Assembly: GCA_903831815.1 (NCBI GenBank)
Contig: CAIKZC010000002.1
Location: forward strand, 7,244-71,243
From: an uncultured bacterium
GTDB lineage: Bacteria > Patescibacteriota > Minisyncoccia > Phycocordibacterales > UBA11359
Length of the DNA: 64,000 bases
Direction of reading: 5' to 3'
The notes beneath the pieces are model-generated. The model worked only from the letters and a program-made list of their open reading frames with translations, did not search any database and was not told where the DNA came from. The translations under genes were made by a program, and so were the position numbers. Numbering within the stretch: the stretch's first letter is position 1; each line of letters starts with the position of its first letter. This document shows, in pieces, positions 23,601 to 60,425 of the stretch.

Positions 23601-24295
23601 TTCAACTGAAACTTCACATAAACCGAAATATCGGTGATATCTTTGTAACCTTGGTTGACTTCAAAGTTGGAAAGCGTCGTGCCGCAATGCGGACAGAGAT
23701 GCACCGATTTATAACCTTCGTAAGCCAGATCTTTTTTGAAAAGCTCTTTGAACGACCACCAAACGGATTCCATATAGGTCGAATCCATGGTCATATAATA
23801 ATTGTCCATGTCCACAAAACGACCGAGACGCGGAATTATTTTTTTCCAATCGGCGTAATATCGCAAAACGCTTTCGCGTGCGGCTTTGTTAAATTTTTCG
23901 ATACCGTATTCCTCGATCTCTTTTTTATTCTTAAGCCCAAGTTCCTTTTCGATCAAATTTTCTATCGGCAAGCCATGACAATCCCAACCCCAACGACGAG
24001 TGACGTGATAACCTTGCATCGTTTTGAAACGTGGGATCACATCTTTCATTGTGCCGGAAAGGATATGACCATAGTGTGGCAAACCGGTCGCAAATGGTGG
24101 ACCATCGTAAAAAGTAAACTCACCTTTTGGCGCGTCTTTTTGCAAAGTTTTTTCAAAAATTTTGCTTTCATCCCAAAAAGCCAAAATCTCTTCCTCGCGA
24201 GCGGCTAATGCGCTTTTCAAAGGAACTTCTTTCGCCGGTTTAACGGATTCACTTCCCTTTTCTTTTTTAACTTTGTCTGTCGCCATATATTGAAA
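20699..24295 (-). CDS. ileS: isoleucyl-tRNA synthetase carrying an internal histidine-phosphatase (PGAM-like) domain insertion of about 200 aa
   Basis: HIGH PFATGLPHYGH, KMSKS KMSKRLKNFP, editing domain. The insertion lies between WGISRQRYWG and VLDVFDTWYDSG and carries RHGEGEHN and ILIVSHDDPLFFMR motifs. Start taken at MATDK (24295); the track ORF extends to 24367. Confidence 0.85.
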   Translation of the reverse strand, partial: FQYMATDKVKKEKGSESVKPAKEVPLKSALAAREEEILAFWDESKIFEKTLQKDAPKGEFTFYDGPPFATGLPHYGHILSGTMKDVIPRFKTMQGYHVTRRWGWDCHGLPIENLIEKELGLKNKKEIEEYGIEKFNKAARESVLRYYADWKKIIPRLGRFVDMDNYYMTMDSTYMESVWWSFKELFKKDLAYEGYKSVHLCPHCGTTLSNFEVNQGYKDITDISVYVKFQLKDKKDEIVPDTFLLAWTTTPWTLPGNFALAVNSKIDYVQISIVDEKNPEKTIKLILAKNRLSTIKSAYTVEDEFKGTKLVGKSYEPIFPYYKDTELPNKENAWHVYEAEFVTIEDGTGVVHIAPGFGEDDLQLSQEKKIPFVQHVSADGKFKKEVIEFAGQDVKPKGDHQKADIEIIKYLAGKGNLFAKEKIIHSYPHCWRCDTPLLNYATSSWFVKVTEIKKRLVAENNKIHWVPDYVGEARFGNWLEGAKDWGISRQRYWGTAMPIWRCKECKKIEVLGSIDDLKQKVRSSNTYFLMRHGEGEHNVKNILSSKVENQHHLTEKGRDDVAKSAKSLKGKKIDIIYASDFVRTKETAEIVAETIGFPIEKIIFDKRIRELNVGEMDGKSCAEYHALFKNKEERYIKAPNGGETVENVRNRVTEFLIGIDKENEGKNILIVSHDDPLFFMRMGAQGLTRKQILAISATKDEDYLHPGEVKQHHFYHIPRNEKLELDLHRPYIDDISWPCECGGKFARVLDVFDTWYDSGSMPYAQNHYPFEKTVFDAEKHKNFPADFIGEGLDQTRGWFYTLIVLGVALFNESPYKNVIVNGLVLAEDGKKMSKRLKNFPEIMPAVDKYSADALRYYLMSSPAVKSEELLFSEKGLDEVVKKLLMRLNNIYSFYALYADNSAAYKNSENVLDRWILARLSQTCNTITGALGAYMLDKAARPIDDFIEDFSVWYLRRSRDRFKGDDAADKEAALATMRYVLFEFSILIAPFMPFIAEDIYQKVKNETDAESVHLRVWPVCENYDVKILTDMNTVRKIVEVGLAFRAKEGKKVRQPLAGIEYDAENMLSPEFESIIAEELNVKLVKRSLGLKEKNNESMTANDVTVLVDVKMTPELIEEGKLRELMRAIQEVRKEMEFNPQDKASMEFSGDDMTVAFIKKYNDELVKKVNLVSAPSFVQNTTGTPVVAEDLHLTVQLKKV

Positions 24296-24382
24296 CATAC
24301 TAGCATTTTTCCTGATTTTATAAAAGAAAAGCCCGACGGTAAAGTAACCGAAGGGCTGGAATGCCACGAATGCGAAACATTA

Positions 24383-24838: not shown

Positions 24839-26566
24839 CTACATCTTTTCCGGAACGGAGATACCGAGCAATTTTAAGCCGTGATTCATTATCTGCACGA
24901 AACCGGCTGTCAAAGCGACCTTATAGGAAGCGGTTTCATCAGTTGGATCCACGATTTTGTTGGCGACATAATATGAATTGAATTCTCCGGAAAGTTGGAG
25001 CAAATAAGTTACTATATTCTGCGGAGCAAGATTAACGGTCGCGTGTTCAACGACTTCTTCGAAACGCGCAAGTAATTTTTCAAATTCTGAAACCTCGGCC
25101 GGAATATTTTTCTGAGATGGTTTTATCCCCTCTTTCTTGGCTTTTTGCAGAACCGAGTTGGCGCGCACACTACCGTATTGCAAATACGGACCCGAATCGC
25201 CTTCGAACGAGAGTGATTTTTCAAAATCAAAAATGATGTCGTTACCCGGAGCTTGTTTTAAAATTGAAAACTTAATCGCGGCAATCGCAACCGTATCAAG
25301 AATTTGTTTTTTCTCTTCCCCATTTAATTCACGGTCAGCAATTTTTTCGGCGACCATTTTCTCAACATCATGAATTAAAGATTCGCCGGTGATCACATTA
25401 CCTTTACGCGAACTCATTTTTCCCTCAGCAAAACGTAACATGCCATGGGAAATGTGTCTCATTTTATTAGCCGTTTCCGGAAAAATAAATTCGATAACCT
25501 TGAGCAAAACTTTAAAATATTCATTCTGCTCATTTCCCGTAACTGAAATCGACAGATCAAACGGATAGGTTTCAATTTTACGTTTGGCAAGACCGAGTTC
25601 TTTGGCTTCATAGGTCGGAATACCCTGAGAATTAACAAAAACACGAGTATGTAAGCCGTATTTCTCGCCCTTAAAAACAATCGCTCCCTCGCTTTTTTCA
25701 AATATTCCTTTTTGCAAAAATTCATCAACCAAAAACATGCCAATCGGCGCCATTTCGCTTTCGTAAAATTCAAAATCAAACCGCGTGTCGAGTTTTGGAA
25801 ATATTTCGTGAAAATGTTTTATACTGATCTCCCTACCCCACTTGTATAATTCTTCAATCTTAGCATCGGAATGTTCAAAAATTTTCTTATTTATTTCTTT
25901 TATGTTGTCCGCCAAAATCGGATCACTTTCAAAAGCGGTGTTGCCTTCGGCGTAGACACGACCAATGTAAGCAATTTCAGTCTCTTTACCGGATTTATCG
26001 TACGGAGTTTTCATCATACCCCAAATCGCTTTGGCTACATGCAAGCCCACATCACCTCCATAATATGCGCGTTTCACCTCCGCTCCGGCATTTTCAAAAA
26101 GTCGAGAAATAGTTTCTCCGATTGCATTCGACATCAAGTGCCCGATATGAAATGGTTTGAAAGGATTTGGATCGGTGTATTCGATCATCACCTTTCTGCC
26201 TTTGTGCAAATTATTTTTGCCGTATTCGCTACCATCTTTCAAAATCTGTTCGACAGTTTTGGCAAAAAATTCGCGGGTAAAATAAAAATTAATGAAACCG
26301 GGACCCGCGATCTCGATCCTCTCAACTTCAGAAAGTTTGTTTTTGCGAAATACTCCGCTTTTACGCTGTTTTTCCAATTCCAAAACGATCTTTTCGGCCA
26401 AGACACGCGGATTTTGTTTAGTAATTTTGGCGTGGATCAAAGCGGCGTTGGTGCTCAAGTCTCCGTGCTCAACGTCGTTCGGATATTCCAAACTAAAATC
26501 AATGACTCCGATCTTTAGATCAGCCAGCGCATCCCCGATTGCTTGTTGTAATTTTTGTTTGATCAT
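24839..26566 (-). CDS. argS: arginyl-tRNA synthetase
   Basis: HIGH motif PFHIGH, N-terminal Arg_tRNA_synt_N-like domain, DALR-type C-terminus. 575 aa. Confidence 0.9.
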   Translation of the reverse strand: MIKQKLQQAIGDALADLKIGVIDFSLEYPNDVEHGDLSTNAALIHAKITKQNPRVLAEKIVLELEKQRKSGVFRKNKLSEVERIEIAGPGFINFYFTREFFAKTVEQILKDGSEYGKNNLHKGRKVMIEYTDPNPFKPFHIGHLMSNAIGETISRLFENAGAEVKRAYYGGDVGLHVAKAIWGMMKTPYDKSGKETEIAYIGRVYAEGNTAFESDPILADNIKEINKKIFEHSDAKIEELYKWGREISIKHFHEIFPKLDTRFDFEFYESEMAPIGMFLVDEFLQKGIFEKSEGAIVFKGEKYGLHTRVFVNSQGIPTYEAKELGLAKRKIETYPFDLSISVTGNEQNEYFKVLLKVIEFIFPETANKMRHISHGMLRFAEGKMSSRKGNVITGESLIHDVEKMVAEKIADRELNGEEKKQILDTVAIAAIKFSILKQAPGNDIIFDFEKSLSFEGDSGPYLQYGSVRANSVLQKAKKEGIKPSQKNIPAEVSEFEKLLARFEEVVEHATVNLAPQNIVTYLLQLSGEFNSYYVANKIVDPTDETASYKVALTAGFVQIMNHGLKLLGISVPEKM

Positions 26567-26596: not shown

Positions 26597-27025
26597 TTAT
26601 TTTCTGCCAGTGCTACCAAATTGGCCCATTCCTCGAGCGCTTTCGGATAATTCTGAAACTTCCTCTAGTTTAGCAATTTCAACCGGAAACAGAACAACTT
26701 GAGCAACTTTATCCCCCTTTTCAACCGTGTATGGTTTATCACTCAAATTTACCAAATGAACGTTGTATTCGCCTCTAAAACCGGCGTCAAATACCCCACC
26801 CATTGTGTGAAGTCCGGCTTTGGAAATACTGCCTTTGTCTTTGATGATACCGGCATATCCGATCGGAAATTCCATTGCAAAACCGTTATAAAAGCGATGA
26901 TGTTCACCGGGATTTATCGTCACTTGCTCAAGCGAATACAAATCAAGACCAACATCACCGGCATGTGCATAGCTCGGTAATTTCGCTTCCGGATTCAATC
27001 GTTTAATTTTTACAGTCAGTGCCAT
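26597..27025 (-). CDS. dut: dUTP diphosphatase
   Basis: AGDVGLDLYS, RSGLA-like KSISKAGLH, C-terminal GMGQFGSTG motif. Start at MALTVKIKRL (27025); the track ORF runs to 27070 and overlaps the upstream small ORF's stop. Confidence 0.85.
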   Translation of the reverse strand: MALTVKIKRLNPEAKLPSYAHAGDVGLDLYSLEQVTINPGEHHRFYNGFAMEFPIGYAGIIKDKGSISKAGLHTMGGVFDAGFRGEYNVHLVNLSDKPYTVEKGDKVAQVVLFPVEIAKLEEVSELSESARGMGQFGSTGRK

Positions 27026-27035
27026 TTTTATAAAA

Positions 27036-27254
27036 TTATTCTTCAGAAAAAACCTCCACACAAAGAACATTTTGGTCGTTGACCATTACTAAACGCCCGT
27101 CAGTCGTATTGAATTTAGTAAATTGTCCCTGGGAAATAGAACTGGAAATAACGCCTTTTATCGTTTTCTTAGTACCGCCCATAAAAGTAATGATTTGGGT
27201 CACAGTTTTTCCTTTTGACTCCACTGAAGATTTTAGATCAATTTGTTTAGGCAT
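27036..27254 (-). CDS. small hypothetical protein (72 aa)
   Basis: Complete ORF between glyA and dut on the same strand. No motif recognised. Confidence 0.3.
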   Translation of the reverse strand: MPKQIDLKSSVESKGKTVTQIITFMGGTKKTIKGVISSSISQGQFTKFNTTDGRLVMVNDQNVLCVEVFSEE

Positions 27255-27260
27255 ATTTTT

Positions 27261-28460
27261 TTATTTTTTACCTTTTTTCTTCGACGTTTTGCCGCGGAGA
27301 ACAGCATCGATCTTTCGAGCAATGGCAATCATATCTTTTTCTCTCTTGCCTCGAGTCGTTTCAGCCGCCGTACCCAAGCGAATGCCAGATGGGTCCATCG
27401 GACTTCGAGTTTCGTTCGGGATTGTATTCATGTTCACAATAATTCCGGCTTTCTCCAACAACTTGCTGGCCACGCTTCCGGCAATACCCTTGCCCATCAT
27501 CCAAGTGTCCATCAAGATCAAGTGACTGTCCGTACCGCCCGAAACAATTCTCCAACCGAGTTTTACCAACTCCTCTGCTAGCACTGATGCATTTTTCTTG
27601 ATCTGATGTGCATATTTTTTAAATTCGGGAGATGCTGCTTCTTTTAGAGCAATGGCAACGGCCGCAATCTGATTCATGTGCGGACCACCTTGCATACCAG
27701 GGAAAATAGCTTTATCGATTTTTTTGCCAAGTTCTCGTTCATCATTTTTGGCAAAGATCAAAGCACTACGCGGACCACGAAGAGTTTTGTGCACGGTCGT
27801 TGTCACAACATCCGCATAATCAAAAGGCGTAGGATACGCTCCTCCAGCCACAAGCCCGGCCACATGCGACATGTCTACCATCAAAATTGCACCAACACTG
27901 TCGGCAATTTCACGAAACTTTTTGAAATCGATAACGCGAGGATAGGCGGTAAATCCGGCGACAATTAGAGCCGGTTTTTCTTTTTCGGCCACCGCTTTTA
28001 TTTCTTCATAATTAAGCTGTTCGGATTTTGCATCCACGCCATAAGCGACTTGCTGCCAAGCTTTTCCGGAAATCGAAACTTTGTGGCCGTGAGTTAAGTG
28101 ACCACCATGCGAGAGGCTCATACCCATGATTTTGCCACCAAGCGGCACTAGAGCTAGATACACTGCAACATTGGCTGGCGATCCGGAAAGTGGCTGTACA
28201 TTAACATGCCACTTTGCCGGAGAAAGTTTAAAAAGTTTCAAAGCGCGTTTTTGCGCCAAAATTTCTATTTTGTCGGTAAAAGTTTGTCCGCCATAATATC
28301 GGTGACCGGGATACCCTTCGGAATATTTGTTAGTGAGCTCTGAACCGAGTGCCGCAAGCACATCAGCTGAAACAAAATTTTCAGAAGCGATGAGGTTGAT
28401 GACTTTTTTCTGTCTTTCCTTCTCAGCCTTCATAAGTTTACCGATTTCTTTATCTTTCAT
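27261..28460 (-). CDS. glyA: serine hydroxymethyltransferase
   Basis: PLP-site TTTVHKTLRGPRSALIF. N-terminus ...LIASENFVSADVLAALGSELTNKYSEGYPG. Confidence 0.9.
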   Translation of the reverse strand: MKDKEIGKLMKAEKERQKKVINLIASENFVSADVLAALGSELTNKYSEGYPGHRYYGGQTFTDKIEILAQKRALKLFKLSPAKWHVNVQPLSGSPANVAVYLALVPLGGKIMGMSLSHGGHLTHGHKVSISGKAWQQVAYGVDAKSEQLNYEEIKAVAEKEKPALIVAGFTAYPRVIDFKKFREIADSVGAILMVDMSHVAGLVAGGAYPTPFDYADVVTTTVHKTLRGPRSALIFAKNDERELGKKIDKAIFPGMQGGPHMNQIAAVAIALKEAASPEFKKYAHQIKKNASVLAEELVKLGWRIVSGGTDSHLILMDTWMMGKGIAGSVASKLLEKAGIIVNMNTIPNETRSPMDPSGIRLGTAAETTRGKREKDMIAIARKIDAVLRGKTSKKKGKK

Positions 28461-28516
28461 GGCAGTAGCGCACCGTGGCGCAAGTTATTGAATATGTGTA
28501 AAGTTTATCACAAAAA

Positions 28517-28548
28517 AAGAGGACTCCGTAGCTTGACGGAGTCCTTCT
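28517..28548 (-). terminator. rho-independent terminator after the 28583..28927 gene
   Basis: Minus strand reads AGGACTCCGTCAAGCTACGGAGTCCT followed by CTTTTTTTGTG. Confidence 0.6.
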
Positions 28549-28582
28549 TGCGTTTCGCGCCATCGCCCACCTAATCCTTGAT

Positions 28583-28927
28583 TTACCACTGCCAGGGCTC
28601 ATCGTCGGTAAATACGGTTTTACCCCCGCTCTCGGTTGTGGTTACCGAACGAACGTCATTTCTTGACGTGACAATGCGATGTTCAAGTGAAGACGGCGCC
28701 CAATCACTATCACTTAACCTCTGCATGTCTCCAGACAGTGGTTTGATGGCCGACTCAGGCAGTGCGACATCTGCATTCGAACTACCGCCGTTCGTAACCG
28801 GCGGGTTTTCAGGTGATGGTTTTAAACCATCCCGCGACAGATTTACCTGCAAAGATTCTGAGAAGTTGCTATCAACGCGACGACGACCGCTACTGCTTCG
28901 CAGTAAACAACCAACGTGATGCATCAT
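28583..28927 (-). CDS. GC-richer orphan hypothetical protein (114 aa, low-complexity, probably disordered)
   Basis: RBS GGAGGAAGACATC then ATG. Own terminator downstream. GC visibly higher than the neighbours. No domain recognised. Confidence 0.4.
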   Translation of the reverse strand: MMHHVGCLLRSSSGRRRVDSNFSESLQVNLSRDGLKPSPENPPVTNGGSSNADVALPESAIKPLSGDMQRLSDSDWAPSSLEHRIVTSRNDVRSVTTTESGGKTVFTDDEPWQW

Positions 28928-29039
28928 GATGTCTTCCTCCCAAAAGGTTTATCTAGTTCCAACTGTTCTGTAATTATAATAACTTTTAAAAACATTTCTC
29001 GCAACGTTACAAAAAAATGTCTTGTGATAGAATTAAAAA

Positions 29040-29546
29040 ATGATTTCAATTATCTCGGCTGTGGCAGAAAATGGAATTATCGGAAAAAACAACGATTTGC
29101 CTTGGAAAATATCCGCGGACCTTTCGTATTTTGCAAAAACCACCAAAGGCAAGCCCGTGATCATGGGTTTAAATACTTTCAAATCGATATTTTCACGCAT
29201 CGGCAAGGCGCTTCCCGGGCGAAAAAATATAGTTTTAGTTTTTGAAAAAGACCCGACACTGGTCGGATGCGAGCAAGTTAAATCATTGCAAGAAGCTTTC
29301 GATCTAGCGGGCGCAAAAGATCAAGAAGTTTTTGTGATCGGTGGAGCAAGCATCTACAAACAATCAATAGATTTTGCGGATAAACTATATATCACAAGGA
29401 TCCATGCTTCCCCGGACGGAGACACTTCGTTCCCTGAGATAAAAGAAAGTGAATGGAAAATTGTTTTGTCGGAAGATCACACCAAAGACGATACAAATGA
29501 ATTCGATTATTCATTTACCATTTATGAGAGAATTAGCGTAAAATAA
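29040..29546 (+). CDS. folA: dihydrofolate reductase
   Basis: MISIISAVAENGIIGKNNDLPWKISADLSYF..., VIGGASIYK, 168 aa. Confidence 0.85.
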   Translation: MISIISAVAENGIIGKNNDLPWKISADLSYFAKTTKGKPVIMGLNTFKSIFSRIGKALPGRKNIVLVFEKDPTLVGCEQVKSLQEAFDLAGAKDQEVFVIGGASIYKQSIDFADKLYITRIHASPDGDTSFPEIKESEWKIVLSEDHTKDDTNEFDYSFTIYERISVK

Positions 29547-29569
29547 ATATATTAGTTAACTTAACCACC

Positions 29570-30472
29570 ATGTACAAACAAGTAAGTGAACGGAAAGCAG
29601 ACAGCCAGTACCAGGATTTATTACGAAAGATCTTGAAGGAAGGGCGAAGTTCTGGAGTCATACAGGGCGAAGACGCGATTCGCATCATCGGATTACAACT
29701 TCGATACGATATGAGCAACGGTTTTCCGATGATAACCGAACGAGATATGTCCGGACCATTTCTTAAAGCGGCTCTCGGCGAACATATCGCTTTTTTAAAC
29801 GGCGCTCGCACTCAAGCAGAACTGGAAAAATTTGGATGTAAATTTTGGTCACGTTGGGTCACCAAAGAAAAATGCGCTATTTTCGGATTGCCTGAAGGAG
29901 ATTTGGGACCAGGTTCATATGGCGCTGCTTGGGCCAACTTCCCCACTTCAGAAGGCGAACCGTTCAATCAGATCACTCATTTAATGCAACAAATAAAAGA
30001 AAAGCCGTATCTTCGTACGCACATTCTCACACCTTGGATTCCTCAGTACACAATCCAGCACAATGGTTTAAATCGTAAGGTTGTTGTCGCTCCATGTCAC
30101 GGTTGGGTTCACGTCGTCACCTACCCCGAACAAAAAGAGTTTGCGATTCACCATTTCCAACGCAGTTCCGATATGCCGGTGGGAGTGCCATTCAATATAA
30201 TTCAATATGCCGCATTTGGTCTTATGTTGCAAAAATTGATCGGCTGGAAATTTGTTGAATACATTCACACTTTTTCAGATGGACATATTTATGAAAGCCA
30301 AGTAAAACACGTTGAAGAATTGTTGCAACGAGAACCGCGTAAACTTCCGACAGTTCGCATAGATGAAGAAGCTACTAAAAATATTACGGATATCAGAGAT
30401 TTCCGACAGGAACACTTTATTGTCGAAGATTACAATCCACACCCAAAAATGACCATTCCGACACCAGTTTAA
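29570..30472 (+). CDS. thyA: thymidylate synthase (ThyA family, divergent)
   Basis: Active site APCHGW and FQRSSDMPVGVPFNI (conserved R, S, D and N; Asn retained, so dUMP-specific). DLGPGSYGAAW folate-site region. Confidence 0.8.
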   Translation: MYKQVSERKADSQYQDLLRKILKEGRSSGVIQGEDAIRIIGLQLRYDMSNGFPMITERDMSGPFLKAALGEHIAFLNGARTQAELEKFGCKFWSRWVTKEKCAIFGLPEGDLGPGSYGAAWANFPTSEGEPFNQITHLMQQIKEKPYLRTHILTPWIPQYTIQHNGLNRKVVVAPCHGWVHVVTYPEQKEFAIHHFQRSSDMPVGVPFNIIQYAAFGLMLQKLIGWKFVEYIHTFSDGHIYESQVKHVEELLQREPRKLPTVRIDEEATKNITDIRDFRQEHFIVEDYNPHPKMTIPTPV

Positions 30473-30483
30473 TCCCAAAAAAA

Positions 30484-30936
30484 ATGATCGAGAAAAAATT
30501 CGTAAACACCAACAATACCCAAGATCGCCCTGATGGAAAATACAGCGGTGTTATTGCCGACATCCAAAAAGACGGCGTTTGTCCTTTTTGTGCCGAACAA
30601 TTAAAAAATTATCACAAAAATCCGATCATCGAGGAGACCGAACACTGGTTAGTGACCAATAATATGTACCCCTATAAGAACGCTAAACATCACATTTTAC
30701 TCATTCACAAGGTACATATAGAAAATATAAAAGAGATGAGCGAGAAAGCCTGGTCAGAACTTCACGCGATCTTTTTAAATGCAATTGAGCGATCAGATAT
30801 CCCGGGCGGCACGATGTTTATCCGCTTTGGAGATACAAAATTTACCGGTGCCAGCGTTTCGCACTTGCATGCACACCTCGTTTCATCTGATCCAGAAAAT
30901 CCTGGATACACACCACTCCTCACCAGAATTGGTTAA
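30484..30936 (+). CDS. HIT-family (histidine triad) nucleotide hydrolase/transferase
   Basis: Histidine triad HLHAHL near the C-terminus. Cys pair CPFC near the N-terminus. Confidence 0.6.
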   Translation: MIEKKFVNTNNTQDRPDGKYSGVIADIQKDGVCPFCAEQLKNYHKNPIIEETEHWLVTNNMYPYKNAKHHILLIHKVHIENIKEMSEKAWSELHAIFLNAIERSDIPGGTMFIRFGDTKFTGASVSHLHAHLVSSDPENPGYTPLLTRIG

Positions 30937-30938
30937 GC

Positions 30939-31763
30939 CTATTTAACCAAAATTATATCAATTTCGTATTGTTTAAAGAGTTTTTCCGCGTCTATCAAAG
31001 AGTAACCACTCGAATAGAAAACTTTTTTGATGCCGGCCTCTACGATAAGTTTGGCACAAACCGGGCAAGGAAAAGTTGTCGAATAAATTGTGGCACCATC
31101 AAGTGACACACCCTTTTTGGCTGCCTCGGCGATAATGCCGGCCTCGGCATGAATCGAGGTGTATAAATCGAGATGTTCCCCAGCATCAAAATTGTTGCGT
31201 GGATCACCATTTTCATACGGACTATTAGGTGACGGTAAGTGACGATTATACCTAGCAAAAAGCACTTTATCCCCTTTTACCGCTACTGCCCCAATTTGTC
31301 GCCACCAATCCGAACTCTTATCCGCCGCCGCAAAGGCCAACTTCATCATTTGTTTATCAAAATCTTTCTGAGAGATTACCCTATTTGGATCGATTATATT
31401 TTCACGTAGTGTAATTGGTTTGTCCCATCGTAAAAAAACTTTTTCAAAGGTTATTTGGCAGTCTGGTAAATATTTTTCAGCAAAGTACCTCATTAAATCT
31501 TCATCCGGCATGACAATTTCCGCATCTGGAGATATTTTGCCAATATCCTTTTTTTCCAACACTTCAATTTCGGAAACAATATTTAATCCTTCTATGGCTT
31601 TTTTCATATCTCCAGGAGCCACCAATCGAATTTCACGTTCCATGCGCGGAAATTCGAGAATTAAATCTCGTCCAAGCAAATACACTGTACCTGGGTACTT
31701 TTTTAACAAAGAAACGTAACCAGCATGCAATACCGGAATATAGGCAATAAGAATTTTAGCCAT
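30939..31763 (-). CDS. deoxycytidylate (dCMP) deaminase with an N-terminal extension of about 130 aa
   Basis: C-terminal CDA-fold zinc motifs HAE(AG) and PCPVCAKLI. The N-terminal 130 aa are unrecognised. Confidence 0.65.
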   Translation of the reverse strand: MAKILIAYIPVLHAGYVSLLKKYPGTVYLLGRDLILEFPRMEREIRLVAPGDMKKAIEGLNIVSEIEVLEKKDIGKISPDAEIVMPDEDLMRYFAEKYLPDCQITFEKVFLRWDKPITLRENIIDPNRVISQKDFDKQMMKLAFAAADKSSDWWRQIGAVAVKGDKVLFARYNRHLPSPNSPYENGDPRNNFDAGEHLDLYTSIHAEAGIIAEAAKKGVSLDGATIYSTTFPCPVCAKLIVEAGIKKVFYSSGYSLIDAEKLFKQYEIDIILVK

Positions 31764-31767
31764 ATGA

Positions 31768-32361
31768 TTATCCTTTTTTAATTTTCTCCAGAAAATCTTG
31801 AGTGAGTTTTACAACTTCGCTTGCCAACTCCTCTGCCCCTTCTATTGTCAGATTGCGAATGCGAGCAGTTGTTGAGGTGGTCGCTTGCGGCGGCATCGTC
31901 ACAATTTTTCCACAAACATCTTTATATTCCGATTTCATTTTTTCATCAAAATCACTTGTGCTAGAAGATGTTACCAACACATCTGGTCGAACCAAACGGA
32001 TCAAATCACCAATATCATGACTAGCCTCACGAACGGTAACAATATCAACATGACGTAAATGAACCAACATTTTCAGACGTTCCGTTTCAGGAACAATGGG
32101 ACGATTAGGGCCTTTACGGACTCGCGTTAGCTCATCCGAGTCTACACCAACGATAAGAATGTCTCCGTAACTTTTGGCAACTTCCAAATAAAGCGCGTGT
32201 CCTTCATGAATCAAATCCCAAACACCTTGAGTTAGAACGACTTTTTTCCCTTGTTTTTTGAAAGTTTCAACAAGTTTTTTTAATAGACCTTGGTCATTAA
32301 TCAATCTGTGTTGAAAATTTGTTTCTGGCGCGAGAATCTTTGCGGTGTGTTTAGGCGACAT
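31768..32361 (-). CDS. cytidylyltransferase-like nucleotidyltransferase (TagD/RfaE-II-like HIGH-motif family)
   Basis: TQGVWDLIHEGHALYLEVAKSYGDILIVGVDSDE matches the (T/H)xGH nucleotidyltransferase signature. Confidence 0.55.
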   Translation of the reverse strand: MSPKHTAKILAPETNFQHRLINDQGLLKKLVETFKKQGKKVVLTQGVWDLIHEGHALYLEVAKSYGDILIVGVDSDELTRVRKGPNRPIVPETERLKMLVHLRHVDIVTVREASHDIGDLIRLVRPDVLVTSSSTSDFDEKMKSEYKDVCGKIVTMPPQATTSTTARIRNLTIEGAEELASEVVKLTQDFLEKIKKG

Positions 32362-32394
32362 GAAAGGTATTGAATTATTATTAGCCTAATTATA

Positions 32395-33504
32395 TTAAAC
32401 TTTAAAGTGTTTAGCTAGTCTTGGACCGGATTGAACAATATAGTTGGAAGAAATGGCGTCATAAGACTGCGGCGGCATGCCGGTCATGCGTTCAAATTTG
32501 ACCTTAGCGATCGGTTGACCGTGACGAACTATCAAATCTTCGAGTGGACGCACCTCGAGCGTCAGCGGCCTGCCTTTACCCTCGGCTCGCACTCCCCAAC
32601 CCCACCCCGGATCAATAAAACCGGCGTAGTGAGAGCGAAATTCGGCGCTACGAACATCCATCGGGATCATTTCACAAGCGAGTTCCGGCGGTACGCGCAC
32701 AGCTTCGTGGGTAGCCAGAAGATAAAATGCGCCTTTTTTCAGATAAGCTAAACCGTTCTTTATTTCAATTTTTTTGAAGAATTTTTTGTGATCATAATGA
32801 TCGATCTGCGAGAGATCAACCACGTTGTCGGAAACAATTCCCTCATAACCCGGATTGTCTCCATCCAAATCCAAAGTCATAACGATGGCGCCATCCTTCT
32901 CGCTGACAGTCATATCTTCATAGTTATATGGTGTACCTTTGTTCTGATACCAAAGTAATTTGTAATTTTTGACCGCCACTTCGACTTCAAAAGGATTGAG
33001 TCGAGTGTCCATATTGAAAAAACGGATCTGGTTGAGCGAAACACCTTCGTATAATTTTATCGGAAAAGTTTTGGGAATGACGAAGATCCAAATCTCGCCG
33101 GTAAAACCCGGGGTCACCGAATCGTATCGCGCTACCCCGTCGGCGATAAGGCGCACATGCAAATCAATACGACCGGAAGTTGAGCGCGGATTTAGGAAAC
33201 CGTAGACCGAATGAGGTAATTCCAAAGTTTCTTTGAGACGAATTAAATAAATCTGATCATGTAAAAGCGGTTTGCTGATCGGATGTTTTTTCTTGTTGAT
33301 TTTCGATAAAATCTTTTTAATCGTTTCACCTTTGGCCGGTTGGAAAATACCATCCACGGAATAAATCTCGTCGGAAATAGTGAGGTCGAGTGAAGCCGGG
33401 CGCACATTTTCTTCTTTGGCATTTTGAATGAAGCCGGCGCGAATAAGCTCGATGATAGTCTGGCTTGGGAGCGTGCCTTTTCCGTTTAAAATGCTGACAT
33501 TCAT
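32395..33504 (-). CDS. long-form 2'-deoxycytidine 5'-triphosphate deaminase (DCD family, dUTPase fold, about 360 aa)
   Basis: VRPASLDLTISDEIY resembles the dCTP-deaminase substrate loop. Length and two-lobed repeat fit the 360-aa DCD family rather than the 190-aa Dcd. Confidence 0.45.
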   Translation of the reverse strand: MNVSILNGKGTLPSQTIIELIRAGFIQNAKEENVRPASLDLTISDEIYSVDGIFQPAKGETIKKILSKINKKKHPISKPLLHDQIYLIRLKETLELPHSVYGFLNPRSTSGRIDLHVRLIADGVARYDSVTPGFTGEIWIFVIPKTFPIKLYEGVSLNQIRFFNMDTRLNPFEVEVAVKNYKLLWYQNKGTPYNYEDMTVSEKDGAIVMTLDLDGDNPGYEGIVSDNVVDLSQIDHYDHKKFFKKIEIKNGLAYLKKGAFYLLATHEAVRVPPELACEMIPMDVRSAEFRSHYAGFIDPGWGWGVRAEGKGRPLTLEVRPLEDLIVRHGQPIAKVKFERMTGMPPQSYDAISSNYIVQSGPRLAKHFKV

Positions 33505-33552
33505 TATCCTTTAATCATAGGCCTATGGAAAGAAAAAAGCAAAAAAGGGACA

Positions 33553-33580
33553 AAAATAAAGCCGACACTTCTGTCGGCTC
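33553..33580 (-). terminator. terminator hairpin after the 33607..34095 gene
   Basis: AGCCGACA-GAAGT-GTCGGCT followed by TTATTTTTGTCCCTTTTTT on the minus strand. Confidence 0.5.
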
Positions 33581-33606
33581 TACTTCCATTTTTATGGAAC
33601 TCCATT

Positions 33607-34095
33607 TTATACGGCCAAACGCATTCGAGACTGACCTCGAACAAACTCCGGAAACAAAGGATGTTGAGTTTCATCATCTTTTTGCATCCTGGCAAGCTTG
33701 TCCGCCACCAAAGTGGCACCGTCGGTTCGTAAATCACGATATCGACGAAATTCAAAGCCCGGCTGACGAGTGTCAATGATGAGATCAGACACAAGAGATC
33801 CTTCGCGAGCAATAGCCAAACATGGCATACCCCTCGCCTCAACTTGTGTGGCCATTTCATAGCCAAGACCGGTTGCCGGATGATCACAGACTGCAACCAT
33901 CAGACAACATCTCATGACACAATCATGAATATCGTAACGATATATCTCGTAGGGAGGAAAATCTCCCAAACCCAAAAATGAAAGTACGGTGCAAAACGAC
34001 TTGACATTGATCTTGAAGCCCTCGATCTCCGCGCGAAATTCTGGCGGAGCATGAGTCAAACCACAACCAATATAAACCTTGCGATCAAAGAACAT
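33607..34095 (-). CDS. nucleoside 2-deoxyribosyltransferase-like / Rcl(DNPH1)-like deoxynucleotide N-hydrolase
   Basis: RBS AAAGGAG 8 nt before MFFDRKVYIGCG. VAVCDHPATGLGYEMATQVEARGMPCLAIA matches the catalytic Glu-containing GxGxExG(y)A motif of the NDT/Rcl superfamily. GC-richer than the neighbours. Confidence 0.55.
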   Translation of the reverse strand: MFFDRKVYIGCGLTHAPPEFRAEIEGFKINVKSFCTVLSFLGLGDFPPYEIYRYDIHDCVMRCCLMVAVCDHPATGLGYEMATQVEARGMPCLAIAREGSLVSDLIIDTRQPGFEFRRYRDLRTDGATLVADKLARMQKDDETQHPLFPEFVRGQSRMRLAV

Positions 34096-34177
34096 GGCCA
34101 GCTCCTTTTGTAAAAAGCCAAAGTTAAATCCTAAATATAATATAAGCCCAACTGAATAAAAAAGCAAAAAAGAGCCC

Positions 34178-34225
34178 CGGGTTTTGTTCGTCGCTTTCTT
34201 GCGACGAACAAAACCCGGGGTATAC
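34178..34225 (-). terminator. strong rho-independent terminator (21-bp perfect stem) after the 34228..34770 gene
   Basis: CCCCGGGTTTTGTTCGTCGC-TTTCTT-GCGACGAACAAAACCCGGGG. The minus strand continues CTCTTTTTTGCTTTTTT. Confidence 0.75.
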
Positions 34226-34227
34226 CC

Positions 34228-34770
34228 TCACCCGACACAACGAAGCAACTGGTCACAACCGAAAACAATCTTGCGATTCATGTCCCACCACTTGTCCCAT
34301 GGTCTGGCGACTTCAGCCTGAAGACAAAGCCGGCCATGATCATCTCCAAAGATCCTTAGGATGCAAGGATCGCTCGCCGAATCAAGGCGTTGATTCATGA
34401 CAAACCACAGGTCAATGCCCCTGTAAGTCGGCCGGCGGCTAAGGTGAACTGCGACAGCCAAAACGGCCTCGCTTGGACAGATCCGACCGCCTATACTTGG
34501 AATGTAACTCCAGATCTCGTGAGTGGCGGGGATGGATTCAAACAGCATATCGAGGCGAGCCGCAGCCAAATTGAGCGGTATCACACTTCGACACAGGCTA
34601 CTGAATCCCCTACTTTTGATCACGAAGTCGGCCTCCGGCAAAACATGAACGCCCACGGCATTCAAAATAAGTGCCCATTCATCCTCTGTTTTGTATGCCG
34701 CTTCGATCTGCATCCAAAACATTTCACGCGCACTTCTGACAGTACGTTTCTGGATTGTCATCTGTGACAT
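34228..34770 (-). CDS. GC-richer hypothetical protein (about 180 aa)
   Basis: RBS AGGAGG 7 nt before ATGTCACAGATG (MSQMTIQ...). Strong terminator downstream. No domain recognised. Confidence 0.45.
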   Translation of the reverse strand: MSQMTIQKRTVRSAREMFWMQIEAAYKTEDEWALILNAVGVHVLPEADFVIKSRGFSSLCRSVIPLNLAAARLDMLFESIPATHEIWSYIPSIGGRICPSEAVLAVAVHLSRRPTYRGIDLWFVMNQRLDSASDPCILRIFGDDHGRLCLQAEVARPWDKWWDMNRKIVFGCDQLLRCVG

Positions 34771-34884
34771 CGCGCATTCCTCCTGAAAAGAACTCCGTTT
34801 AAAATTCAAAACGATTGACGCTGACATTAATTAAACGTCCGCCAGATTACATTGTCAACGAATAAGTATTTAAAAAACAAAGTA

Positions 34885-34980
34885 AAAGAGCAGTTTTGAG
34901 GGACTCACGGAGCGCGACGGCGCGAGTGTGAAGGAAATTTCCAGCAGGAAATTTACCTGTGCCCTCAAAACTGCTCTTTT
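34885..34980 (-). repeat. structured palindromic repeat element, copy C (reverse orientation, 3' of rplK)
   Basis: Core identical to copy A over 68 nt. Outer 19-bp stem AAAAGAGCAGTTTTGAGGG / CCCTCAAAACTGCTCTTTT. T-run on the minus strand after the element. Confidence 0.8.
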
Positions 34981-35002
34981 ACTTTGCTTTCTACTCTTTT
35001 TA

Positions 35003-35428
35003 TTATTTAACCACCTCCACCCCCATCGATCGTGCCGATCCTTCAATGATCTTCATAGCGGCTTCAATATCGTTGGCGTTTAGATCAGGAAGTTTCTTTT
35101 CAGCTATTACACGAATTTGAGCTTTGGTAATCTTGCCGGCTTTGGTAATTTTGTTCTTGCCGGAACCTTTCTCGATCTTGATAGCCTTAAGAATCATGTT
35201 GGAAGCAGGCTCAGTCTTGTAGGTCATCTTGTAGGTACGATCCTCGAAAACTTCGATGATCGTAGGTACATTTTCACCGGCGCGAGCTTTGGTTTCGTCG
35301 TTAAAACGCTTGACGAATTCGCCAATGTTAATACCGGCCTGACCTAGAGCAGGACCGAGAGCTTGTCCGGGAACGGCTTTACCGCCGGGAATAATCAATT
35401 TTAATCTTTTTGTAACTTTTTTTGCCAT
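35003..35428 (-). CDS. rplK: 50S ribosomal protein L11
   Basis: MAKKVTKRLKLIIPGGKAVPGQALGPALGQAGINIGEFVKRFN... is the uL11 signature. Confidence 0.95.
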   Translation of the reverse strand: MAKKVTKRLKLIIPGGKAVPGQALGPALGQAGINIGEFVKRFNDETKARAGENVPTIIEVFEDRTYKMTYKTEPASNMILKAIKIEKGSGKNKITKAGKITKAQIRVIAEKKLPDLNANDIEAAMKIIEGSARSMGVEVVK

Positions 35429-35484: not shown

Positions 35485-36030
35485 TTAAACCTTCTTAACT
35501 TGCAAGAAATCCAATTCGACTGGGGTTTCTCGACCGAACATTGAAACCAAGACTTTCACCTTGCCTCTTTCCTCATCAATACTGTTAACTGCACCTTCCA
35601 AATCCTTGAAAGGACCGTCGGAAATCATGACTCGGTCATTTATCGCCAAATTAATTGCGTGTTTGACGTCGCCTGAGTTCATGCGTTTAAAAAGAACTTC
35701 AAATTCTTTCTTGTCGATAGGCACAGGATAGACACCGGATCCAACGAAACCAGTGACGCGAGGCGTGTTGCGAACAACATACCAACTATCATCAGTCACG
35801 ATCATATCCACCAAAATATATCCGGGATATATTTTCTCTTCCTCTTCAACACGTTTGCCGGCTTTGACTTTGATTTTCTTTTCAGTCGGCACAAGTACGT
35901 TAAAAATCTTATCCCCCATTCCGAGAGATTCGATGCGCTGTTTCAAATTACGAGCCACGGCATTTTCGTATCCGGCATAAGTGTGGATGACGTACCAGTT
36001 TCGCTCGGCTTCAATTTGCTGTTTTGCCAT
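35485..36030 (-). CDS. nusG: transcription termination/antitermination factor NusG
   Basis: NGN domain WYVIHTYAGYENAV, KOW domain ...RVMISDGPFKDLEGAVNSIDEERGKVKVLVSMFGRETPVELDF. Confidence 0.9.
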   Translation of the reverse strand: MAKQQIEAERNWYVIHTYAGYENAVARNLKQRIESLGMGDKIFNVLVPTEKKIKVKAGKRVEEEEKIYPGYILVDMIVTDDSWYVVRNTPRVTGFVGSGVYPVPIDKKEFEVLFKRMNSGDVKHAINLAINDRVMISDGPFKDLEGAVNSIDEERGKVKVLVSMFGRETPVELDFLQVKKV

Positions 36031-42426: not shown

Positions 42427-42536
42427 GCAACATTGTGTTATTGTGAAAAATTATCATTGCTCCGCAGGTATAAAAATTGATATACTTTTATTCACCTAAG
42501 AAAAAGCAAAATTTATTAACCAATATTTTTTCACGT

Positions 42537-54580: not shown

Positions 54581-54712
54581 AGCATACCAAAATTGAAACT
54601 AATTTTACAGCAGGGTTAGAATGCCCGCTGTGATATGAATAATTGACTGAAAATTGGGTGACCACCCGGTTATGCTCCGGGGCTAAAAGCTCCACAAGCT
54701 TCTGTGCTGCTA

Positions 54713-55234
54713 TTACACCATGGTCACCATGTTTTGCCAAGGCTTTACGAAACTTAAAAACCTTCGCTTTTCAAGCTTATCATGATGTATGAGGTAATGG
54801 CAATTGTGACAGAGCCAAACTAGATTTTTTATATTTAAATTTGAGTGATCTTGATCGATGTGATGCACAACAAGAATTCTTGAATCTACCTTGTGACAAA
54901 GTAAACATTCTGCTTTTAATCCGCTTTTTAACACTATTTTTCTATAAATCGTCTGCCCACCCTTCCAACCTAAATGTTTTTTGCCGCTATATTCAACATT
55001 CCTCCATTTAGTCTGACAAGATTTTCCACAAAAATATTTACCACTTTTAGAACGACTAATTTGCGACATTGTTTTATAAATAACTTTGTTACAAACATAA
55101 CAATTGGTCTCTTTTCTAGTTCTTGTACCAAACTTCTTACAATATCTTGAACAAAATATCCCCCACCCTATTTTTTCATGACTAGGTTTTACATAAAAAT
55201 CATTATTGCAAATTTTACATTTATGAATTGACAT
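54713..55234 (-). CDS. HNH endonuclease with N-terminal zinc-ribbon repeats (paralogue 1)
   Basis: Multiple CxxC pairs, then VVHHIDQDHSNLNIKNLVWLCHNCHYLIHH (HNH motif). Confidence 0.7.
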   Translation of the reverse strand: MSIHKCKICNNDFYVKPSHEKIGWGIFCSRYCKKFGTRTRKETNCYVCNKVIYKTMSQISRSKSGKYFCGKSCQTKWRNVEYSGKKHLGWKGGQTIYRKIVLKSGLKAECLLCHKVDSRILVVHHIDQDHSNLNIKNLVWLCHNCHYLIHHDKLEKRRFLSFVKPWQNMVTMV

Positions 55235-56339: not shown

Positions 56340-56361
56340 ATAATTTTAGGTTATGAATATG

Positions 56362-56445
56362 TGCTCGGGACAGGACTTGCACCTGCACGCCCTTACGGGC
56401 TTACGCACCTCAAGCGTAAACGTCTACTAATTTCGCCACCCGAGC
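56362..56445 (-). tRNA. tRNA-Leu(GAG)-like, type II with long variable arm; atypical D-loop and T-loop
   Basis: 84 nt. Perfect 7-bp acceptor GCTCGGG/CCCGAGC plus discriminator A. Anticodon stem TACGC/GCGTA with loop TTGAGGT. Variable arm GCCC-GTAA-GGGC. T-stem GCAGG/CCTGT. D-loop lacks the GG dinucleotide and the T-loop reads TGCAAGT (G at position 55). No encoded CCA. Confidence 0.45.
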
Positions 56446-59886: not shown

Positions 59887-60425
59887 TGATTTTTTGGATT
59901 CATTATAATGGTTATGGCAAAATCGATATTTTGGGCCTTGGCAAAATCCGACACAGGCAAATCGGCCGAGATGACTCCCTGTTGCAATTTTATTTTTTTA
60001 ACGAAATCAAGCAAAGTTTGTCGCGAACTAGCTCTTCCGGAAACAATAATTTGCATTTGACCATTAATCATTCTGTATAGGAAACTGCTTAGATTTATGG
60101 CCGTGCCGCGCGTTTTTACAATAATCTGGAGGGCATTAACAACTCCTATAGGTGTAGATGAGGACGACAAAATATTGATGTAAGAATTGGTTTTTTGGAC
60201 GATTTTTGACAATTCTAAGGTCTCGGCATTTAAATTTTGAACTTTTAGATCAGCTGATTGCGAATTTAAAATATCAATACGCGTTTGCGCAGTTAAAAAT
60301 GATGGAACAAGCAGGATCAAAGAAATTGCTTCCCCGGCCAAAGCGAGAGCGAGAGCAACCACAATAAACCTGTTTCGATACTCTCGAATTATTTTCTGTT
60401 TTTGTTCTTTTAATAAAAGGTTAAG
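59883..60425 (-). CDS. pilN: type IV pilus assembly protein PilN-like
   Basis: Start taken at MLNLLLKEQKQKIIREYRNRFIVVALALALAGEAISLILLVPSF. Short cytoplasmic N-terminus, TM, then periplasmic coiled-coil, typical of PilN. Confidence 0.45.
   Translation of the reverse strand, partial: LNLLLKEQKQKIIREYRNRFIVVALALALAGEAISLILLVPSFLTAQTRIDILNSQSADLKVQNLNAETLELSKIVQKTNSYINILSSSSTPIGVVNALQIIVKTRGTAINLSSFLYRMINGQMQIIVSGRASSRQTLLDFVKKIKLQQGVISADLPVSDFAKAQNIDFAITIIMNPKNQ

Follow-up and report, generated by a model that had tools for sequence, protein, structure and literature searches.

The stretch of DNA analysed here, 64,000 nucleotides of contig CAIKZC010000002.1 and referred to below in its whole length as the window, carries a compact island of deoxynucleotide and thymidylate genes. 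The island lies on the chromosome of a tiny symbiotic member of the Patescibacteria (Parcubacteria), wedged between nusG-rplK and argS-ileS, and the names on its homologues are Parcubacteria, Paceibacterota and Patescibacteria. An earlier reading of the sequence alone (the sequence-only reading) had listed its genes and held that together they cover the path from dCTP and dCMP through deoxyuridine monophosphate (dUMP) to thymidylate (dTMP), plus folate recycling. Every gene it named is present at its coordinates, and family membership bears out the coverage. Gene identities were assigned by Pfam and NCBIfam profile searches, except for the Rcl-like gene, which they do not hit. The genes, the two domains of the deaminase and the conserved anchors are as follows, with lengths in amino acids (aa) and (+) or (-) for the strand.

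26597-27025 (-): dUTPase (dut), 142 aa; PF00692 at 91 bits, TIGR00576 at 109 bits against a cut-off of 102.55
27261-28460 (-): serine hydroxymethyltransferase (SHMT, glyA); PF00464 at 537 bits
28583-28927 (-): orf114, apparently a strain-specific ORFan
29040-29546 (+): dihydrofolate reductase (DHFR, folA type); PF00186 at 184 bits
29570-30472 (+): thymidylate synthase ThyA, here called module type; PF00303 at 211.5 bits against a cut-off of 24.3
30484-30936 (+): HIT-superfamily protein; PF01230 and PF11969
30939-31763 (-): N-extended dCMP deaminase; PF00383 in its C-terminal part
30939-31361 (-): catalytic domain of the deaminase (residues about 135-274); PF00383 at 67.8 bits against a cut-off of 25
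31386-31763 (-): N-domain of the deaminase (residues 1-126), a predicted degenerate cytidylyltransferase-like Rossmann domain
31768-32361 (-): cytidylyltransferase-family enzyme (CTP_transf_like; ECT/HldC/TagD-like); PF01467 at 59.3 bits against a cut-off of 21
32395-33504 (-): long tandem-domain dCTP deaminase-like protein (long DCD; DCD_N and DCD_C); PF06559 at 131.7 bits, PF22569 at 125.6 bits
33607-34095 (-): Rcl/DNPH1-like putative deoxynucleoside-5'-monophosphate N-glycosidase, 162 aa; found by PDB profile search and hhalign
34228-34770 (-): unk180, apparently a strain-specific ORFan
35003-35428 (-): rplK, conserved left anchor of the island
35485-36030 (-): nusG, conserved left anchor of the island
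24839-26566 (-): argS, conserved right anchor of the island

The dUTPase reading frame reaches 27070, and the 142-aa form agrees with relatives (the orthologue at locus L092 also has 142 aa).

A four-gene module conserved as a block

Conservation was assessed in 80 species-level genome loci that encode the N-extended deaminase, searched with the window proteins by tblastn; since the loci were picked by deaminase similarity, the counts are biased. The cytidylyltransferase was matched at 79 loci, the HIT protein at 73, ThyA at 71 and DHFR at 47, with lower numbers for rplK (44), nusG (42), SHMT (35), dUTPase (33) and argS (22); several loci without a HIT or ThyA match are cut off by the end of their contig. 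None of these 80 diverse loci had a match for the long DCD, the Rcl-like gene or either unassigned open reading frame (ORF). The cytidylyltransferase gene lies directly upstream of the deaminase gene on the same strand at 79 of the 80 loci, with a median gap of 2 nt (4 nt in the window), and thyA lies directly upstream of the HIT gene, again on the same strand, at 70 loci, with a median gap of 8 nt (11 nt in the window). These two bicistrons, cytidylyltransferase to deaminase and ThyA to HIT, converge. The gaps in both pairs are operon-like, and ThyA and HIT are predicted to be co-transcribed. The N-extended deaminase itself gave at least 573 species-level genome hits.

The HIT protein, the cytidylyltransferase and the N-extended deaminase, together with ThyA, are the most conserved unit of the locus across Patescibacteria, a stable four-gene heart around which DHFR, SHMT, dut and kinases shift. 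The sequence-only reading had treated the first three as accessory add-ons, a view that the 80 loci contradict. It had also proposed that gene-for-gene conservation in relatives, with the accessory genes annotated to housekeeping roles, would make the cluster an ordinary dTMP operon. Comparison of the neighbourhoods found such conservation for the core, with a variable slot beside it, but the accessory genes carry no housekeeping annotation.

The variable slot is the interval between rplK and the cytidylyltransferase gene. Elsewhere it holds DHFR, rplA, deoxynucleoside monophosphate (dNMP) kinases (DNMK) and other P-loop kinases, the deoxypyrimidine 5'-nucleotidase NT5C, FolD, an F420-ligase-like gene or a dNK-like kinase, and in the close relative L099 it contains a DeoC-family aldolase and a NUDIX gene. 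We regard the locus as a hot spot that recruits deoxynucleotide genes. In the window rplK is not followed by rplA (L1), and in 15 related loci the L1 gene stands between rplK and the transferase, so that in the window lineage the nucleotide island interrupts the classical rplKA operon. Between SHMT and dUTPase, L094 and L095 (13558-14247) have a thymidylate kinase gene called as two ORFs (56 and 154 aa), which suggests a frameshift or a pseudogene in a genome that carries the four-gene module.

Sequence identity to the window separates the module from its surroundings. Locus L099 is close by its flanks (NusG 98%, L11 94%, long DCD 89%, dUTPase 87%, SHMT 86%) and has a very different module (ThyA 50%, HIT 48%, deaminase 43%, transferase 47%). 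Loci L001 and L094 are distant by their flanks and close in the module: NusG is 72% and 70% identical and L11 56% and 53%, the long DCD is absent from both, SHMT is a partial match in L001 and 68% identical in L094, and dUTPase is not covered in L001 and 48% identical in L094, whereas ThyA reaches 86% in both, HIT 74% and 75%, the deaminase 73% and 77%, and the transferase 80% in both. Over the 80 loci, identities of the module genes correlate with one another (Spearman 0.73 for ThyA-transferase, 0.60 for HIT-transferase, 0.35-0.44 for the other pairs) and not with those of NusG, L11 and SHMT (-0.08 to 0.21), which correlate mutually (0.52-0.79); these correlations are not a phylogenetic test, and they too come from loci selected through the deaminase. 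The pattern suggests replacement of the module as a block, since this is what such replacement would give, and the block co-variation speaks most strongly of all the evidence for a joint function of the four genes.

The contrary view is that they are neighbours only. The transferase, and perhaps the HIT protein, would then be unrelated housekeeping genes, for example for envelope precursors, held in place by frozen synteny, and the N-domain a structural relic without a ligand. Synteny in these small genomes also takes in nusG, rplK, argS and ileS, which are equally syntenic without a functional link, so that adjacency alone is weak evidence. Co-variation of the four genes as a block, decoupled from the flanks, runs counter to this view, as do the short median gaps (2 nt over 79 loci, 8 nt over 70), and we consider it rather unlikely; further points on both sides come from the proteins themselves.

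Proteins of the module

Pfam places the start of the deaminase domain at about residue 135, which makes the N-terminal extension of about 130 residues real, as the sequence-only reading had claimed; current annotation explains neither it nor the accessory genes. The extension is kept over its full length in the best 120 database matches. A profile of the N-domain finds 596 representative clusters (at 50% identity), and most of those listed have about 275-300 aa, the shorter representatives being probably fragments; the annotation of these roughly 600 clusters reads only "dCMP deaminase."

The catalytic domain carries the HAE and PCxxC zinc motifs, with H205, E207, C233 and C236 invariant, and matches dCMP deaminases in the PDB (4p9c, 2hvv, 1vq2 and 2w4l) at E values from 5e-13 to 1e-9. 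A member of the dCMP deaminase family would act on dCMP, not on dCTP or a conjugate, under allosteric control by dCTP and dTTP. The deaminase has the catalytic domain and zinc ligands in common with ComEB of B. subtilis, the S. mutans enzyme (2hvv), Cd of phage T4 (1vq2) and human DCTD (2w4l), but the window protein has an extra N-terminal cytidylyltransferase-fold domain of about 126 residues that is absent from every solved deaminase, and an SDWWRQ(I/V)G motif replaces the usual RS-C-R-VGA helix.

In the zinc-motif region the best matches are to anti-phage dCTP deaminases (NF041025 at 77 bits; PADLOC dCTPase at E 8e-24), which share with the window protein the logic of a nucleotide-binding N-domain joined to a deaminase C-domain. 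A defence island that depletes nucleotides through dCTP deaminases would account for these PADLOC and NCBIfam matches, for two cytosine-nucleotide deaminases within 3 kb, and for the ORFans and the variable slot. The matches, however, are local and span only 63 residues around the zinc motif (residues 202-265), the N-domain is cytidylyltransferase-like rather than kinase-like, and the deaminase gene is near-universal and syntenic with ribosomal genes, a core-genome context instead of the patchy occurrence of a defence island. With no further PADLOC match in the island, a role in defence appears extremely improbable.

The N-domain has no Pfam match, and comparison with the PDB by single sequence and by profile, a check of the kind that the sequence-only reading had proposed, returned nothing meaningful; fold comparison alone worked. 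The AlphaFold2 model of residues 1-126 is confident (pLDDT 88, pTM 0.79), and two independent methods assign it to the nucleotidyltransferase Rossmann (cytidylyltransferase) fold. Eight residues are invariant: P10, H13, G15, Y16, R46, P86, R112 and W113. On the model, we interpret this region as a degenerate cytidylyltransferase-fold domain, related to the family by fold and not filed as a member of it. A ligand is probably still bound, because the residues of the active-site loop are invariant. Loss of half of the catalytic signature would suit the relic expected if the genes were neighbours only, but eight invariant residues are unexpected in a relic domain. The existence of a triple fusion also counts against that view: P0231, a cluster representative from outside the window (469 aa, a single case), is one polypeptide in which an intact transferase is fused to the N-domain and the deaminase.

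The stand-alone transferase has the family motifs HEGH (HxGH), RP and TTSTTARIR (STT-R), with H52, G54, H55, T164 and R169 invariant, and its profile matches ECT (E 1e-29) and HldC (E 4.5e-27) in the PDB. By these motifs it is a full member of the cytidylyltransferase family (PF01467). It reaches 106 bits with TIGR02199, below the cut-off, and the RfaE-II and TagD equivalog cut-offs, like all others, are not reached; while it carries all motifs of the GCT/CCT/ECT/HldC family, equivalog models set it to no substrate. That it is closest to ECT, HldC and TagD counts in favour of the four genes being neighbours only.

The HIT protein has the HxHxH triad (SHLHAHLV), with H127 and H129 invariant, and an invariant N-terminal CPFC knuckle, which resembles that of GalT and CwfJ-type HIT proteins. 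It passes the Pfam models HIT (23.5 bits against 21.5) and DcpS_C (31.8 against 24), and its profile matches HIT proteins in the PDB (E 1.7e-6). Scores are similar and weak across the branches of the superfamily (Hint, Fhit, GalT, aprataxin and DcpS).

ThyA passes TIGR03284 (162.7 bits against 108.35) and falls under the cut-off of all other NCBIfam thymidylate-synthase models listed; its nearest PDB matches are canonical thymidylate synthases (E 1e-38). Functional sites were compared in the window protein and 74 orthologues (75 sequences), numbered by the E. coli sequence, in which every site letter was checked by script. Cys146-His147, E58, W80, Y94, Q165-R166-S167, D169, Asn177, D205, H207 and Y209 are all retained, and the 13 catalytic and folate positions checked, Asn177 included, are invariant or nearly so across the orthologues. 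Asn177 specifies dUMP rather than dCMP; its presence, with that of all catalytic residues, answers the question raised in the sequence-only reading of whether the active site fits dUMP. The clamp for the dUMP phosphate (R21, R126', R127' and R166) is altered: R126 and R166 are kept, and in the window protein R21 is replaced by Ile and R127 by Thr. At the R21 position 66 of the 74 orthologues have I or Q and 73 have a residue other than Arg, and Thr occupies the R127 position in 71. In the islands of L084, where the deaminase is of the short type, and L109, which have neither transferase nor HIT protein, the ThyAs keep both R21 and R127. That these two islands with canonical ThyA lack both partners argues further against a chance neighbourhood.

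The sequence-only reading had also allowed for base modification or modified nucleotides. In such a pathway of DNA or nucleotide modification a ThyA-like hydroxymethylase would act with transferases, as in phage hypermodification or in nucleoside antibiotics of the MilA/MilB type. ThyA is divergent (211 bits in Pfam, and only TIGR03284 passed), a HIT protein and a nucleotidyltransferase are present, and, as in MilA/MilB, an enzyme of the NDT/Rcl family accompanies a ThyA homologue here. However, Asn177 and the hydride-transfer and folate-binding residues are invariant, the nearest structures are canonical, and DHFR and SHMT are co-located with ThyA, which fits the production of dihydrofolate. 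The module also belongs to core chromosomes, as its hundreds of genome hits indicate, and is essentially not viral, and no glycosyl- or amino-transferases or hydroxymethyl kinases were found. With ThyA canonical at every catalytic residue and DHFR and SHMT adjacent, base modification finds no support and is very unlikely. A phage origin was rejected as well, IMG/VR having 1 locus with the N-extended deaminase.

The long DCD and Rcl-like pair and a proposed role for the island

The long DCD aligns end to end (residues 32-368) with 2r9q of Agrobacterium (E 3e-47) and stays under the NCBIfam equivalog PRK07559 (254 against 283 bits). It has the same two-domain build (PF06559/PF22569) as the long-form DCD of A. 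tumefaciens, for which activity is itself putative, 2r9q being a structural-genomics entry; here it occurs in a Patescibacteria clade and is paired with the Rcl-like gene. It was found in L088, L092, L099 and L102, that is, in every close relative covering the slot.

The Rcl-like protein, most likely starting at the ATG at 34095 (162 aa), has no Pfam or NCBIfam match, and 11 of 11 family members fail all Pfam NDT models. Its identity as an Rcl/DNPH1 relative, proposed by the sequence-only reading, nevertheless gains support from two comparisons. The 13 best real matches of the family profile in the PDB are all DNPH1/Rcl (E about 4e-4), and hhalign against rat Rcl (a sequence whose central part agrees with the PDB-search alignment) gives a probability of 94% and E 1e-7 over 124 columns. 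Tyr8, Asp55 and Glu80 align with the catalytic Y13, D69 and E93 of Rcl; E80 and G76-L77-G78 are invariant in the family and Y8 nearly so. The equivalent of Rcl Ser87 is Ser in most members and Ala-Thr in the window protein, and the GSIRGG phosphate loop of Rcl has become C-(S/G)-L-T-H-A (C-G-L-T-H-A in the window protein). Compared with DNPH1/Rcl, a 5-hydroxymethyl-dUMP N-hydrolase, the window protein keeps a full-length profile alignment and the VY...D...PS-G-GYE constellation, but its identity is 23%, it lies below the Pfam NDT thresholds and its phosphate loop is replaced. The family is very small (11 clusters among 5.8 billion proteins; 0 loci in IMG/VR), and by sequence we place it as a small new branch of the nucleoside 2-deoxyribosyltransferase superfamily.

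In five genomes (the window, L088, L092, L099 and L102) the long DCD has the Rcl-like gene as its immediate upstream neighbour. Elsewhere members of the Rcl-like family adjoin ThyA, ThyX, Tmk (twice), DHFR, dUTPase, a short Dcd, MazG, rplK or a short dCMP deaminase, and in two genomes the gene is flanked by smpB and a PLD gene. The order of genes in the slot of L099 is rplK, DeoC-family aldolase, NUDIX, Rcl-like and long DCD. Rcl yields deoxyribose-5-phosphate, the compound on which deoxyribose-phosphate aldolase (DeoC) acts. In mammals, DCTD makes 5-hydroxymethyl-dUMP (hmdUMP) and DNPH1 destroys it (PMC13184875), and the Rcl-like gene is associated with cytosine-nucleotide deaminases as DNPH1 is with DCTD. 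The DeoC link and this precedent point to removal or catabolism of deoxynucleoside monophosphates, and for the Rcl-like gene a role in deoxynucleotide salvage, sanitation or catabolism, including the dedicated salvage function suggested earlier, is plausible from its gene neighbourhoods.

The long DCD and the Rcl-like gene are a clade-specific acquired pair, confined to a genus-level clade and to the slot next to rplK. Since both have normal codon use, it is the phyletic pattern and not composition that shows the acquisition. The earlier suggestion of acquired genes therefore has evidence behind it, which applies to this pair and to the two ORFans described below.

Taken together, we propose, with a probability of about 0.6, that the island is vertically inherited and performs a housekeeping dUMP-to-dTMP and folate cycle around a conserved, undescribed four-gene module, with an add-on for deoxynucleotide sanitation or catabolism. 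By family membership, dUMP would arise by two routes, from dCTP through dUTP (long DCD, then dUTPase) and from dCMP (deaminase); ThyA would methylate it to dTMP, and DHFR and SHMT would regenerate methylene-tetrahydrofolate. A B12-dependent ribonucleotide reductase (RNR) elsewhere in the window would supply deoxynucleotides. The N-domain may be a (d)CTP-binding module, a docking module or both, which would couple the deaminase to cytidine-nucleotide status and to the active transferase next to it, and the HIT protein and the transferase may act on a nucleotide phospho-conjugate that feeds or drains the pathway. The variable slot would have captured the long DCD and Rcl-like pair in the genus-level clade. 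The Rcl-like enzyme most likely cleaves unwanted dNMPs to base and deoxyribose-5-phosphate, which would serve to sanitize the pool after deamination of modified dC nucleotides or to feed a DeoC-type aldolase. Classical dTMP-cycle sets (thyA-folA-glyA with dut and dcd or comEB; cd-td-frd-gp56 of phage T4) contain the same families and have the same flow, but this island has a cytidylyltransferase, a CPFC-HIT protein and a two-domain deaminase as permanent members, its ThyA is without R21 and R127, and four of its genes are inherited as a block.

A more radical reading, which we think quite unlikely, places the novelty at the level of the substrate. The deaminase would take (d)CTP, or a cytidylyl conjugate that the transferase has made, and its product would be processed and released by the relaxed-clamp ThyA and the HIT protein. 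On this route dCTP would become dTMP or dTDP without passing through free dCMP and dUMP, and possibly without Tmk. Equally doubtful are the details of the route. In one part the transferase would transfer (d)CMP from (d)CTP to a phospho-acceptor, or would itself present dCTP directly, while the cytidylyltransferase-like domain holds the nucleotide for deamination; in the other, ThyA minus two clamp arginines would accept a bulkier or less charged phosphate and CPFC-HIT would release the product, in a channelled process specific to Patescibacteria. Such a route would accord with the affinity of the zinc-motif region to anti-phage dCTP deaminases, which pair a nucleotide-binding N-domain with a cytidine-deaminase-fold domain, with the systematic loss of the two arginines in module-type ThyA only, and with the absence of Tmk, which was not found in the island of the window. 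The chemistry of HIT proteins, release of NMP from NMP-X, also matches the type of product that a cytidylyltransferase makes. Against this, architecture is all that the route is drawn from, and the deaminase domain matches true dCMP deaminases over its whole length. Many related islands contain Tmk or another dNMP kinase, and dUTPase with the long DCD already gives a standard triphosphate route.

Several points weigh against the proposed housekeeping cycle with a four-gene module, beyond the selection of the loci and the nature of the correlations. The functions given to the HIT protein, the transferase, the N-domain, the long DCD and the Rcl-like protein are all predicted. The nearest solved relatives of the transferase (ECT, HldC and TagD) make envelope precursors, and the enzyme could be unrelated to nucleotides. 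The N-domain has an invariant HxGY, with Tyr in place of the second His of HxGH, and no ISTS-type motif, only R112-W113 at that place; in these features, in its missing Pfam match and in its fusion to a deaminase it departs from the GCT/CCT/ECT/HldC family. Its hhalign comparison with the neighbouring transferase is insignificant (probability 2%), although the motifs are in register (H13-x-G15 on H52-x-G54, R46 on R87 and P86-D87 on P126-D127), and a recent duplication of the transferase as its origin was rejected on this ground. P0231 is either a Rosetta-stone fusion or the result of a lost stop codon or an assembly error. R21 and R127 tolerate substitution in classical thymidylate synthases, so that their loss may be neutral. 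Finally, the DeoC match in L099 is weak (28 bits against a cut-off of 23.8).

The thymidylate chemistry of the island is textbook. We found no open-access paper linking Patescibacteria, dCMP deaminase and thymidylate synthase, and none on a cytidylyltransferase-deaminase fusion. The cytidylyltransferase-fold/dCMP-deaminase architecture, its constant association with an ECT/HldC-like transferase and a CPFC-HIT protein, the ThyA subfamily depleted in Arg and the block inheritance all appear to be undescribed in the searchable literature. The island is a well-defined enzymology lead in an uncultivated phylum rather than a new pathway already demonstrated. Patescibacteria account for a large part of bacterial diversity and are unable to build nucleotides from scratch, which makes balancing and cleaning of the deoxynucleotide pool central to their dependence on hosts. 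A ThyA locked in a block-inherited module whose partners have no textbook role in dTMP synthesis offers testable biochemistry, and an Rcl-like family beside cytosine-nucleotide deaminases suggests that the sanitation logic of human DCTD and DNPH1 may operate in bacteria on scavenged DNA. If the substrate-level route were true, it would be an undescribed way of making thymidylate, with cytidine deoxynucleotides handled above the level of the free monophosphate; if all proves conventional, the annotation of the N-domain, the ORFans and the clade-specific insertion is still corrected.

ORFans, terminators and the remainder of the window

The two ORFans exceed the window in GC content (about 0.51 and 0.41, respectively) and are atypical in their synonymous codon use. 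They are real ORFs, each with a Shine-Dalgarno sequence and a terminator. For unk180, the gene at 34228..34770 that the sequence-only reading had singled out for checking, a homology search found no homologue but itself, and Pfam, NCBIfam, PADLOC and the PDB gave no match. It starts with the ATG at 34770, 8 nt after an AGGAGG Shine-Dalgarno sequence, has GC of 0.514 and GC at third codon positions of 0.547, is absent from L092, L099 and L102, and always occurs in the same context and the same population. The gene orf114, whose GC of 0.507 is even over the codon positions, comes with a promoter-like site of its own (29004-28976), a terminator and a GGAGG Shine-Dalgarno sequence. The only homology check made for it, clustering at 90% identity, leaves it a singleton; it is absent from L092 and L099 by tblastn and has no Rfam match. 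Both look like strain-specific ORFans with no demonstrable role, lacking in close relatives that are otherwise gene-for-gene alike. The earlier remark that the Rcl-like gene and its neighbour are GC-richer than the island holds for unk180; the Rcl-like gene is only mildly raised (0.466, with the long DCD at 0.450 and island genes at 0.39-0.45). Two further ideas about unk180 were rejected: it has no similarity to the PaaX_M proteins that flank Rcl-like genes elsewhere, and as an RNA or mobile element it has a constant context and only hairpin-like chance matches to microRNA models. Independent metagenome assemblies of the same population break at window positions of about 33750-34210 (L086 and L087 start there, L096 and L097 end there), and these repeated breaks between unk180 and the first third of the Rcl-like gene hint at strain heterogeneity.

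Further features of the island's spacers and of the rest of the window are these.

34175-34220 (-): terminator of unk180, a perfect 20-bp hairpin and T-run
28512-28545 (-): intrinsic terminator (hairpin and T-run), after which comes a promoter-like TGnTAAACT for SHMT; kept in L092 and L099, where changes in the stem are compensatory
34871-34993 (-): structured hairpin of about 120 nt that follows rplK directly; its outer arms have 32 nt, its interior is branched and it ends in a T-run
20699-24367 (-): ileS, beyond argS
42477-44867 (+): class II (B12-dependent) RNR with ATP-cone; PF03477, PF17975 and PF21995

The 580-nt spacer between SHMT and DHFR was considered as a structured RNA or riboswitch for its high GC, SHMT-sense terminator and fold z-score of -3. 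This was rejected because conservation in L092 and L099 is limited to the terminator hairpin and the promoter-like segment, the body being another ORF or nothing there; the spacer had no Rfam match at gathering thresholds or at E up to 10, and none was seen in 15 related loci. An SHMT-sense terminator hairpin stands 50-60 nt upstream of the glyA start in several lineages (L006, L014, L056 and L077), and close relatives keep the glyA terminator along with a TGn-extended -10-like box and, right in front of the ATG, a GC-rich mini-hairpin. The hairpin downstream of rplK is conserved in L092 and L099, with compensatory changes in 21 of 47 pairs and no Rfam family; it is probably an oversized terminator and could be a small RNA.

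The remaining window is ordinary chromosome, with FtsK, RecA, EF-P, MetRS, tRNAs and pilus genes, and also contains a cobalamin adenosyltransferase gene, which fits the B12-dependent RNR. Diversity-generating retroelement genes (bAvd and reverse transcriptase) lie a few kb from the island at different positions in L092 (603-1956) and L099 (19318-20725), and none were seen in the window. IleS (1222 aa) has a His_Phos_1 histidine-phosphatase domain (residues 552-717) inserted in the middle of its catalytic domain, an insertion likewise recorded for the orthologues of L084, L092, L094 and L095. For tRNA-His and tRNA-Leu (54656-54727 and 56361-56445), ARAGORN finds both and Rfam at its gathering threshold neither. 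A VirD4/TraG-like coupling ATPase (DUF87, T4SS-DNA_transf; 48138-50900, minus strand) and PilM/PilO pilus genes (60421-61425, minus strand) are DNA-uptake or transfer machinery that would fit a life on scavenged DNA.

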